Below are positions 6,476-9,593 of a DNA stretch of 64,000 nt, piece after piece; the stretch's first letter is position 1, and every line of letters begins with the position of its first letter. The notes below the pieces were generated by a model. The model saw only the letters and a list, made by a program, of their open reading frames with translations. It did no database searches and was not told the origin of the DNA. The stretch spans positions 5,062 through 69,061 of the forward strand of contig JAFXFM010000003.1 of assembly GCA_017520545.1 (NCBI GenBank), read 5' to 3'. The translations under genes were made by a program, and so were the position numbers. Source of the stretch: Alistipes sp. (GTDB lineage: Bacteria; Bacteroidota; Bacteroidia; Bacteroidales; Rikenellaceae).

Positions 6476-6479
6476 CAAC

Positions 6480-6834
6480 GCAGATTCGGTTCATCGCTGC
6501 CTCGACGAGAGGGGGAGGAAAGTCCGAGCAACACAGAGCACCGTGCAAGTTAACGGCTTGATATTCGAGAGGGTATAGTAGTGTAACAGAAAATAACCGC
6601 CCGGGCAGTAAGCGTCTTTCGGCGCGTCAGGGTAAGGGTGAAAAGGCGGGGTAAGAGCCCACCGCGAGGGCAGCAATGTCGCTCGGTCAGTACGCCTCAC
6701 GGGTTGCAAGGTTATGTATATCGGCAATTAAGGGTTGCTCGCCCGATGCCGAGGGGTAAACCGCTAGAGGTGGCAAGTGATTGTCATCGTAGATAAATGA
6801 TGAACTAAAACAGAACTCGGCTTACGGGGTCTGC
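6480..6834 (+). ncRNA. rnpB: RNase P RNA, bacterial type A
   Basis: GAGGAAAGTCC (6515-6525) and ACAGAACTCGGCTTA (6810-6824) are the universal P4 strands; P1 formed by GCAGATTC / GGGGTCTGC; GGGTAAGGGTGAAAAGGCGGGGTAAGAGCCCACC core. Confidence 0.97.
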
Positions 6835-7325
6835 AAATTTGTCCCTGCACCCTCTTGGTGTGGGGACTCTTTTTGGTTACCTTGAAAGAAATACCACCGT
6901 AAGCCGAATTGTGTGTTACCCACCCCCAAACCCCCTCCTGTGAGGGGGCTTATTACGGGGTCTGCGGTTTTGGGGAAGGCTTTGCGAAATGTGCAAGCCT
7001 TCTTCTTTTTGTAAGGCACTCCCGCCCATAAGCCGAGGAGTGTGTTACCCACTCCCAAACCCCCTCCTGTGAGGGGGCTTACGTTACGGGGTCTGCAAAT
7101 TTGTCCCTGCACCGTCTTGGTGTGGGGACTCTTTTTGGTTACCTTGAAAGAAATACCACCGTAAGCCGAGTTATGTGTTACCTATCCCCCAAACCACCTT
7201 TCTGTAAAGGGGGCTTATTGTTGGGATCTGCGGTTTTGGGGAAGGCTTTGCGAAATGTGCAAGCCTTCTTCTTTTTGTAAGGCACTCCCGCCCATAAGCC
7301 GAGCGTTGTGTTACCCAAACTCCCT
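6822..7325 (+). repeat. Tandem mosaic array of ~131-bp units (A-B-A-B) downstream of rnpB
   Basis: TTACGGGGTCTGC at 6822, 6953, 7084 and degenerate ending at 7231; linker TAAGCCGA..GTGTTACC..CCCAAACC four times; two alternating inner segments, each a hairpin plus T-run. Confidence 0.92.
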
Positions 7326-7418
7326 ATAACCCATAGCGTTCTCTATTGCGCCCGTCATTAAGCAGTCTGCAAGACTGTGCTGTCATTCAATGCCATTCAA
7401 TGCCATCAAATTTGGCGC

Positions 7419-7456
7419 AAAAAGAGCCCGCCTAACGCAATAGTTAGGCGGGCTCT
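7419..7456 (-). terminator. Intrinsic terminator of the 705-aa gene
   Basis: AGAGCCCGCCTAAC / GTTAGGCGGGCTCT 14-bp stem, T-run on the minus strand. Confidence 0.85.
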
Positions 7457-7475: not shown

Positions 7476-9593
7476 CTATTTGCAAACTGAATCCAGAAGC
7501 ATAGTCATCTTAAAGCTGTCCAACCAACCGCCACTGTGAAGGTTGTACCAAGCGTAATAGGCTTGCCAGCCGTTGATCAATACTTCCCAACTTATAAGTT
7601 TGCCAGTACGCTCATCAACTTTGAGTTGAGCAAACTCTACACCATAGTAATAGAGAGATATAGTGCGCACATTGCCTTTTACCGTCTCCATTCTCTTTCC
7701 TTGTTTGCCAGAGAGATTATTGGTTACATCGCGAATAAATCCAATAGGCGTTCCCTTGGCAAAACCATCTTGGCTAACAAACGTATTTATCTCTTGTATG
7801 TAGTCTGGGTATTTTTTGATAAGGTATTCGCAGACAAAAATAGACAAGACTGAACGTACAACACTTTCCATTTGTGATGTTAGGCCCTTTGCATCCAGCA
7901 TCTCCTTTGTCCACTTTTCTCCCTCGCTACTCCACGCTGCAATTAATTCGTTAGAACTATTTAACATATAACCGCCCAAGAAAACCGGATTGGCAAGTTC
8001 CTTTATACCACAAGAAACATTAATGCCCAACGATTTAATGAATGGGTGAGCCTGAACATCGTTGTCTGGGTTCCTTGCATAGCCACGGTCGCCTCCTGCA
8101 CCCCACCATACATTACCATTGTCGTATTTAACGTAGGATATGTCATCGGTCTTCTTTGTTATGCTGATATACTCGTGTTTTCTAAGCGACACACCATCTT
8201 TCATTCGTACATACCATTCATAAGGCTTATACTCTCCATCGTAACGACGGTATTTAATATATTCGCCCTTCTTGTCCTTTGGTGTTGTGAGGTATTTATC
8301 GTACTCATCAAATTTGTAACCGTTAGCGAAGTGGCGGTATTTTGCATCGTGCTTCAAATCGGTGATTGCCGGTGCTGCAAGATCAGTAAGCAACTTCTCA
8401 TACTTCTCCTTTGTGAAGTTTTCGGCGGCACACAAACCCATTTTGTCGCCATTCTTATATACGTACTCGCATTGTTCATTAGCCGCAGAGTAGTGGAATA
8501 CAACGCCATCTCGATAAGTGATAGTACAACTTGTGATTTTACCATTTGCGTCAGCCACAAATGTATCGTTCTTACGCAATGCCTTTTTCTCTGCTTCGAG
8601 AGCCTTCATCTCGGCCTCCGTTATACCACCAATGATATTATCACTCTTGCCATCTGCATATATAAGTTTACCGTTGTCAGCATATTTTTTGAAGTCGGCC
8701 CAAGCCCACGTTAATCCTTTGAACGAATGCAGAGTATTGATATCTTTAACCTTGCAATAGTCGGCCAACTCGCCTTCTACGGCACCGATATACTTGTTGC
8801 CATTCTCGAAGGTGTGGGTAATCTTACCTGCTTCGATTACGCTATTTCCGCCTGTAATTTTGTAGCCCTTAATACCATCGCTCGCAACCGAGACAAAGTC
8901 GCCATTTGGTCGAGTTAGTGTGTAACTACTGTTTTGCAAGTTAATTTTTGCAACAGCACCATTCTTGAAGTTTAAGGTTACTGTTGTTGCATCTTGGAGG
9001 ATTTTGCGTTTTATATTTTTGTTGTCAATACGATATTGTGCCACACCATCAACGTCGGTAATTTTGTAAGACACCTTATCGCCAACAAATTGCTTGATGA
9101 TGCCCATAAACTCACTCGGCAGTTTTGGAGAATAAGCAGACTTGAGCACTATAACATAAGCACCATTTTCGTATTTCATCGTTGCTTCACCAACAATAGG
9201 TCTATTGTTGAATTTACCGTTCTTAATGGTAATTTCGAGGAACTTGTACTTCGAAGCGGCTTTAATCAGTTTTATCAAAGCCAAGTCAGATGATTGGGGC
9301 TGCTCTTTAACCTCTTTGTATATACTCATCGAAAAATCTCCGGTAATGACGCGCTTGTGCTCTTTGAGAATGAGTTTTCCATTGGAAACTTCTAAATTGT
9401 TGAATTCACCCGAGAGTGTTCCGCAAAAGCCCAATGTTAAAGTACCTTTGCCCAGAGGCTTGTTTTTCAGAGTTACACCCTCGAACACTGCATTATCTGC
9501 AATTTTAACGGTCTTTACTTTTGGCTGCGGTGCGGCGAAAGATGAGCCAACACAAACTGCCACCGCCAAAAGCGATAATAATAGTTTTTTCAT
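7476..9593 (-). CDS. Secreted hypothetical protein with degenerate MORN-like beta-hairpin motifs
   Basis: Signal MKKLLLSLLAVAVCVGSSFA; recurring G-x-(L/I)-x-Y-x-(N/D)-G motifs (EATMKYENG, KITHTFENGNKYIG, GKLIYADG, TITYRDG, YVYKNG, VKYDNG). Confidence 0.7.
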   Translation of the reverse strand: MKKLLLSLLAVAVCVGSSFAAPQPKVKTVKIADNAVFEGVTLKNKPLGKGTLTLGFCGTLSGEFNNLEVSNGKLILKEHKRVITGDFSMSIYKEVKEQPQSSDLALIKLIKAASKYKFLEITIKNGKFNNRPIVGEATMKYENGAYVIVLKSAYSPKLPSEFMGIIKQFVGDKVSYKITDVDGVAQYRIDNKNIKRKILQDATTVTLNFKNGAVAKINLQNSSYTLTRPNGDFVSVASDGIKGYKITGGNSVIEAGKITHTFENGNKYIGAVEGELADYCKVKDINTLHSFKGLTWAWADFKKYADNGKLIYADGKSDNIIGGITEAEMKALEAEKKALRKNDTFVADANGKITSCTITYRDGVVFHYSAANEQCEYVYKNGDKMGLCAAENFTKEKYEKLLTDLAAPAITDLKHDAKYRHFANGYKFDEYDKYLTTPKDKKGEYIKYRRYDGEYKPYEWYVRMKDGVSLRKHEYISITKKTDDISYVKYDNGNVWWGAGGDRGYARNPDNDVQAHPFIKSLGINVSCGIKELANPVFLGGYMLNSSNELIAAWSSEGEKWTKEMLDAKGLTSQMESVVRSVLSIFVCEYLIKKYPDYIQEINTFVSQDGFAKGTPIGFIRDVTNNLSGKQGKRMETVKGNVRTISLYYYGVEFAQLKVDERTGKLISWEVLINGWQAYYAWYNLHSGGWLDSFKMTMLLDSVCK

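Follow-up and report, generated by a model that had tools for sequence, protein, structure and literature searches.

The 64-kb window, meaning the whole stretch of 64,000 nucleotides of Alistipes sp. DNA analysed here, carries a single full-length bacterial type A RNase P RNA gene, as determined by an Rfam search. The gene is followed by a trailer (6822–7325) that consists of four units arrayed in tandem as A, B, A' and B' (Table 1). Each unit is composed of a copy of the rnpB 3' end (its last 13–19 nt), an intrinsic terminator, an arm antisense to rnpB and a 42-nt element, hereafter called E. Units A and A' are 94% alike and units B and B' 96% alike, and the A-type and B-type terminators show no sequence relation to each other. 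A terminator scan placed every arm 3' of a good intrinsic terminator, and a non-palindromic spacer of 20–35 nt separates terminator and arm in the rnpB cassettes. The rnpB 3' end is duplicated as direct repeats of 13–15 nt at 6822, 6953 and 7084. The array is about 500 nt long, contains only short (40–96 aa), overlapping ORFs on both strands, and abuts the terminator of the convergent gene on its far side. Inspection by eye revealed no Bacteroidetes-type TAnnTTTG promoter in the array, and a sigma-70 scan gave background values there. In the interval that separates the array from the convergent terminator, there is a perfect 10-nt tandem repeat of 2.3 copies (7384–7406).

Table 1. Features of the rnpB locus and its trailer, with positions counted from the first letter of the window.
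Feature	Position	Strand	Details
rnpB, bacterial type A RNase P RNA	6478..6840	+	Rfam RF00010 (RNaseP_bact_a), 225.4 bits, E 7e-72, model positions 1-367
X, rnpB segment copied as mirror image	6814..6827	+	P4 3' strand 6816-6823 and start of the closing-helix 3' strand
Cassette A	6822..6952	+	rnpB 3' end 6822-6840, terminator 6841-6876, spacer, arm 6897-6910, E 6911-6952
Cassette B	6953..7083	+	rnpB 3'-end copy 6953-6965, different terminator 6972-7012, arm 7025-7039, E 7040-7081
Cassette A'	7084..7216	+	rnpB 3'-end copy 7084-7098, terminator 7103-7138, arm 7159-7172, second variant of E 7173-7216
Cassette B'	7217..7325	+	decayed rnpB 3'-end copy 7217-7231, terminator 7238-7278, arm 7291-7305, truncated E 7306-7325
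Terminator hairpin of convergent gene 7476-9593 (-)	7423..7456	-	bounds the far side of the array

A first-pass annotation of this DNA had pointed out two 22-nt segments of the trailer, 7159–7180 and 6897–6918, as reverse complements of rnpB 6806–6827. Both were recovered by a repeat search, with 91% (20/22) and 86% (19/22) complementarity respectively, and the same search returned two further copies, 7025–7047 and 7291–7313, that are 78% complementary over 23 nt. The target does include the 3' strand of P4, as had been claimed: rnpB 6816–6823 is complementary to 6520–6528 with one bulged base, two strands that we take to be P4 on the strength of established knowledge of E. coli M1 RNA. The arms of the distal units are decayed but still present. 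In both of the 22-nt segments, the distal 8–10 nt correspond to the conserved 5' end, or head, of the dispersed repeat E, so that the match to rnpB is incidental in that part and the locus-specific complement amounts to only 12–14 nt, or 17 nt with one bulge. This incidental part is all that speaks for a chance complementarity within a repetitive, low-complexity trailer. The 12-mer core CCRTAAGCCGAG, with up to one mismatch, has four matches on the plus strand within about 400 nt (6897–7303), against an expectation of 0.46 per 64-kb window, and the total of six matches in the window, counting both strands, was reached by none of 100 shuffles. These four copies, along with an arm that covaries with rnpB in 18 species (see below), refute chance as the explanation and leave it practically no credibility.

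E itself is dispersed over the genome. BLAST and regex scans found 28–34 copies in 1.9 Mb, all of them intergenic. Its head, GTGTTACC, is followed by a C-rich tract, and the element occurs in two variants, between which a small hairpin of 7–8 bp covaries. Without exception, E is downstream of a gene and on its sense strand, both in this genome and at the sites found in other genomes. Of 40 sites taken from 20 genomes, 25 have exactly the same 42-mer, which suggests constraint or function of E. When 121 sampled genomes of the genus were scanned with a strict 19-nt pattern, 24 of them were matched and none of the large complete ones. The records that match the arm plus the E head are titled Alistipes sp. 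or Rikenellaceae metagenome-assembled genomes at NCBI, and many come from the ruminant gut. A search of the literature found no described Alistipes repeat.

The combination of arm and E head was searched for in the genomes of 185,579 species, and further cases were taken from additional genome searches. The scan returned 84 stretches, 16 of which lie shortly downstream of an rnpB 3' motif, at a distance of 82–99 nt in 15 cases and of 232 nt in the remaining one (L112). All of these 16 rnpB-linked matches belong to Alistipes or Rikenellaceae. In an alignment of 18 species of this group, the rnpB 3' end and the arm form an outer helix of 14 bp in which 97.6% of the cells are paired, with compensatory changes at four of the pairs and 12 doubly changed cells. 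None of 500 shuffles matched this helix, in a test that is inflated by the relatedness of the sequences, and slid controls were 31–45% paired. For instance, rnpB genes with TTACGG are accompanied by arms with CCGTAA and those with TTATGG by arms with CCATAA, and the one species with TTATAG has a matching arm across 18 bp. Covariation was also detected within a single cassette type, both between L111 and its relatives and between L053 and L120. The arm thus covaries with rnpB, which is the check that the first-pass annotation had proposed for its own reading.

The arm goes with E and not with the ribozyme gene. The last 34 nt of rnpB were compared with the 300 nt downstream in relatives that lack E behind rnpB; an arm was absent from all 21 of them, the longest downstream complement being 5–9 nt, as against 11–19 nt in two genomes with E that were included in the comparison. 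As the arm is missing from all of these relatives, it is linked to E rather than to rnpB. Among the species that do have them, the cassette types are stacked and reshuffled. At two loci (L053 and L120) the insert is flanked by 15–20-nt direct repeats of the rnpB end, the second of which is followed by a terminator resembling that of a relative without E (L026). The arm extends across the left end of the segment that is duplicated.

The same layout was found far from rnpB. We asked at each E site whether a stretch of at least 10 nt within the 24 nt before E recurs as an exact reverse complement in the preceding 140 nt. This held for 17 of the 28 sites of this genome, against only 0.7% of 5000 random positions, and for 21 of 40 sites from 20 other genomes. 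Four of the 37 tRNA and tmRNA genes found (tRNA-Met twice, tRNA-Lys and tRNA-Ser) have E 43–58 nt downstream, with arms of 5–16 nt complementary to the 3' strand of the tRNA. In other species, arm and E follow tRNA-Ser, -Met, -Gln and -Leu genes, and also a 43-aa ORF and another protein gene, while three genomes without the arm-and-E cassette behind tRNA-Ser have the terminator only and no arm. The flank that precedes E recurs as a direct repeat behind E at 13 of 39 sites, where mismatched controls gave 2.75. Such sites read, in order, gene end, terminator, inverted gene end and E, then gene end and terminator again. In comparable pairs of terminators, the first copy is a more perfect or an extended palindrome relative to the second (C8:3977, C22:83483 and C23:7200). 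Often, a cassette has a terminator that bears no relation to the presumed native one, and the types of terminator are confined to their own sites and are not carried from target to target.

Some of these sites show features of their own. Two paralogous short ORFs of this genome (C8:3779–3928 and C9:145418–145573), with frames of 49 and 51 codons (about 43 aa from a likely MKK start), end in EEDDLIY and are followed by arm-plus-E cassettes. The end of this gene is a recurrent site of E in at least seven other loci (L153, L156, L166, L173, L175, L178 and L179), which come from several species and have a different terminator hairpin each. Two further loci (L147 in genome G099 and L148 in G014) consist of the last 17–21 nt of tRNA-Met with a terminator, a mirror arm and E, and ARAGORN detected no tRNA gene within 350 nt upstream of either; both appear to be orphan cassettes or rearranged sites. 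Behind a tRNA-Ser gene (L182, G001 C99), an arm that is the reverse complement of the tRNA 3' end over 19 nt lacks an adjoining 5' part of E, and only the 3' part of E is found, about 280 nt further on.

According to the first-pass annotation, a read-through transcript could sequester P4 and keep the ribozyme inactive until 3' processing, the arms acting as a cis-antisense maturation switch. Pairing of this sort is indeed predicted. In read-through RNA, the rnpB 3' end would pair with the arm at -49.8 kcal/mol (z -6.2), and this pairing persists in the minimum free energy structure of the whole rnpB plus trailer. The part of the proposal that stands is therefore a predicted, covarying pairing that may sequester P4 in read-through RNA; a dedicated P4-sequestering maturation switch for RNase P is not supported. 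With a GC-rich 11-bp hairpin and a T tract in the terminator ahead of it, the arm should be missing from most transcripts; in addition, the layout is a general one and the arm is tied to E. Moreover, the mismatches in 40 extended stems comprise 9 G.T and 10 A.C, and this lack of G.U bias gives no sign of selection on the plus-strand RNA: such counts are expected for a decaying DNA palindrome and not for an RNA helix. The fallback offered by the same annotation, with the arms as possible ends of elements or of recombination events, comes closer to the data than the switch.

A broader role in RNA seems to us rather unlikely. The arm might be a selected RNA element that pairs with the 3' end of its gene in read-through transcripts, as a general fail-safe whose targets would be P4 and P1 in RNase P RNA or, in tRNAs, the 3' strand of the acceptor. 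Such pairing might keep the extended RNA inactive, or might mark it for cleavage or for Rho-dependent termination on the C-rich E. The predicted stability of the clamp in read-through RNA would agree with this, and so would the 14-bp helix, with its 12 double changes in 18 species and its score unequalled in 500 shuffles, and E, always on the sense strand downstream of a gene, very conserved and with a hairpin that covaries between variants. However, the terminator precedes the arm, the stems lack G.U bias, the shuffle test is inflated as noted above, and the arms of the distal units decay and yet persist. Nor is there an obvious benefit in sequestering the acceptor strand of a tRNA or the catalytic core of RNase P RNA.

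Since the same layout stands behind tRNA genes and other terminators, the arm-plus-E arrangement is most likely a DNA-copying by-product of E and not a switch that controls the ribozyme. For the rnpB trailer, we consider the chances about even that the arms originated as mirror copies of the rnpB 3' end at the level of DNA, contained in a composite cassette that was added in tandem. Such a cassette would comprise the last 13–20 nt of the gene, a terminator hairpin, the inverted 3' end of the gene and E. During replication or repair beside E, the growing strand would switch template at or near the terminator hairpin and copy the sequence upstream of the hairpin backwards, thereby generating the arm; synthesis would then resume, sometimes duplicating the gene end and the terminator. 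E would promote template switching at the adjoining hairpin, and repeated re-copying or cassette turnover would keep the arm matched to the resident rnpB, so that covariation could arise without selection on RNA. Lying beyond the terminator, the arms would normally be outside RNase P RNA, and P4 pairing in rare read-through RNA would be a side effect. Anatomy, generality, link to E and covariation are observed, whereas we infer both the template-switch origin and the role assigned to E itself.

One detail of the terminators may be a trace of such copying. As the first terminator copy is the more perfect or longer palindrome, its 3' half looks re-synthesised from its 5' half, a pattern that by analogy would point to template switching within the molecule and to small inverted triplications (PMC5941160, PMC7202029, PMC13334657). 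Other observations count against the mirror copy. Given the non-palindromic spacer of 20–35 nt, a simple snap-back would not suffice, and a distant switch or later remodelling would be needed. The terminators of the cassettes are often foreign to the site, no enzyme that could spread E was found, and the identity of the 42-mer at 25 of 40 sites hints at a function. Besides, the covariation seen within a single cassette type (L111; L053 versus L120) is also what selection for pairing would produce. These weak points keep both a mobile cassette and the read-through clamp alive as rivals of the mirror copy.

As a mobile cassette, the unit would be a very small element, mobile or integrative, with the 3' ends of stable-RNA genes as its homing sites, a reading that we hold to be possible but improbable. 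The direct copies of the gene end would be att-like or target duplications, the hairpin formed by the arm and the gene end would be what a trans-supplied enzyme recognises or is guided by, and the tandem arrays would grow by accretion, in the manner of cis-mobilizable elements at tRNA genes. Such an element would fit the rnpB 3'-end copy that opens every unit of the array, the stacking and shuffling of cassette types among species, and the inserts of L053 and L120, which lie between direct repeats of 15–20 nt, with the L026-like terminator after the second. Also in keeping with it are the tRNA-Met ends carried with a cassette by L147 and L148 without a nearby tRNA gene, the striking conservation of E, and the position of the arm across the left end of the duplication, where a guide would lie. 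On the other hand, a single E is shared by many targets of unrelated sequence, beyond what a sequence-specific integrase could handle, the terminator types stay at their sites instead of travelling between targets, and a flanking direct repeat is found at only a third of the sites. There is no integrase gene within or beside the array or the cassettes. A Y1 (IS200-like) or RAYT transposase was likewise not detected, as PF01797 remained unmatched in the 92%-complete genome while the controls were matched, and a search for reverse transcriptases yielded only one marginal, broken fragment of 30 bits (C20:11475–11729, L134), away from any E. This RT-like stretch lies in a 755-codon frame broken by one in-frame TGA, beside a gene of the ThiF family. 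No ORF-bearing longer version of E was seen among the E sites of this and the other genomes, and long E had no match in plasmid or phage collections. It is doubtful that the arm-plus-E cassettes form a new class of tiny gene-less elements homing to the 3' ends of stable-RNA genes and to other strong terminators, with the hairpin between gene end and arm as their guide or recognition structure.

We compared the cassettes with known systems. Integrative elements and their cis-mobilizable remnants occupy the 3' ends of tRNA and tmRNA genes. Like them, the E cassettes leave the gene 3' end on both sides of the insert, supply a replacement 3' end and accrete in tandem; unlike them, they have units of about 130 nt with no integrase, many targets for one repeat and an inverted copy of the target. 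MITEs combine terminal inverted repeats and a variable interior with a target duplication of fixed length and a related autonomous IS. In E, the arms of the hairpin flank either 4 nt or an insert of 72 nt, and the direct repeats, present at the 13 of 39 sites mentioned above, measure 10–51 nt with no fixed length. Short dispersed extragenic repeats that bear hairpins are known as REP/BIME in enterobacteria and as SPRITE in Streptococcus pneumoniae (PMC3184786, PMC3049150). These resemble E in lying at gene 3' ends, co-oriented with the gene, often in tandem and in mosaics with small modules, but neither has been described with arms complementary to the end of the neighbouring gene. With REP/REPIN, E shares the form of a short imperfect palindrome in many extragenic copies (28–34, with the hairpin of 7–8 bp) and differs in the lack of a GTAG head and of a RAYT gene.

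Parallels also exist at the level of DNA copying. Template switching is known to correct imperfect inverted repeats to perfect ones (PMC5941160, PMC7202029), and replication errors yield small inverted triplications with a DUP/INV/DUP structure (PMC13334657). Common to these events and, on the mirror-copy reading, to the E cassettes are an inverted copy templated nearby and the order direct-inverted-direct, as well as hairpins that are perfected or extended and arms that stay matched without selection on RNA. Quasi-palindrome mutations, however, are sporadic and affect any quasi-palindrome, whereas the E cassettes recur at defined gene ends in many species and always beside one conserved 42-nt repeat.

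Several other candidates were rejected. A remnant of a group IIC intron would fit the insertion site, but ribozyme domains are absent, the head is not GUGYG and E is only 42–117 nt long; an Rfam search, which would recognise such domains and domain V in particular, matched no intron family in six E loci at E values up to 1, nor any in the window. An integron attC site was discarded because the head departs from the GTTRRRY core and the arms vary from site to site, and footprints of hairpin-end opening (P nucleotides) because these would give palindromes without a spacer. A derivation of E from antisense rnpB was also rejected, as E has no similarity to it beyond the arm.

Reed and Altman reportedly described, in 1983 (PNAS), repeats of 113 bp arranged in tandem 3' of E. 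coli rnpB. In the K-12 sequence (NC_000913, 3269600–3270215; L133) we found at least three direct repeats with a spacing of 113 nt that are 89–92% alike; they repeat the rnpB 3' end and the terminator, are followed by REP elements and are unannotated in the RefSeq table shown. As in the Alistipes array, head-to-tail copies of the rnpB 3' end and terminator stand directly behind the gene, a likeness of layout only, with no sequence homology. The E. coli units lack the antisense copy of the P4 3' strand that every Alistipes unit has, and they also lack the dispersed repeat E and the alternation of two unrelated terminator types. The array described here is a second independent case of tandem repeats of the rnpB 3' end.

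Covariation of a conserved ribozyme strand with a downstream antisense segment can thus arise from a genome-wide DNA architecture, and need not signal RNA regulation, which calls for caution in motif hunting. The mirror-copy architecture, so far undescribed, covers rnpB besides tRNA genes and is tied to one very conserved 42-nt repeat in a clade of ruminant and gut Alistipes/Rikenellaceae. If E provokes template switching or is mobile, it would offer a natural system for the making and turnover of hairpins, inverted triplications and terminator cassettes.

E also occurs in longer and in repeated forms. In long E (112–123 nt), the hairpin loop holds a conserved insert of about 72 nt. This form was found in this genome at C9:145253–145365 and C24:340–452 and elsewhere at L049, L064, L083, L146, L164, L170–L172 and L179. 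At L153 and L156, the insert of about 72 nt directly follows E instead of lying in the hairpin loop, so that it looks like a separate module. Neither E nor long E matched any Rfam family. Tandem arrays of 4–5 copies of E were found at C22:19984–20226 and C3:1617–1918, with periods of 67–68 nt and 89 nt, and the short spacers of these arrays are hairpins themselves, pairing with the end of the preceding E. Arrays of a repeat of about 7 nt, of the TTAGGGA type, are often located downstream of E and followed by their reverse complement, giving long simple-sequence hairpins; they were observed at L145, L146, L154, L171, L172, L174, L175, L177 and L178, and also in the rnpB trailers L069, L071, L096 and L121.
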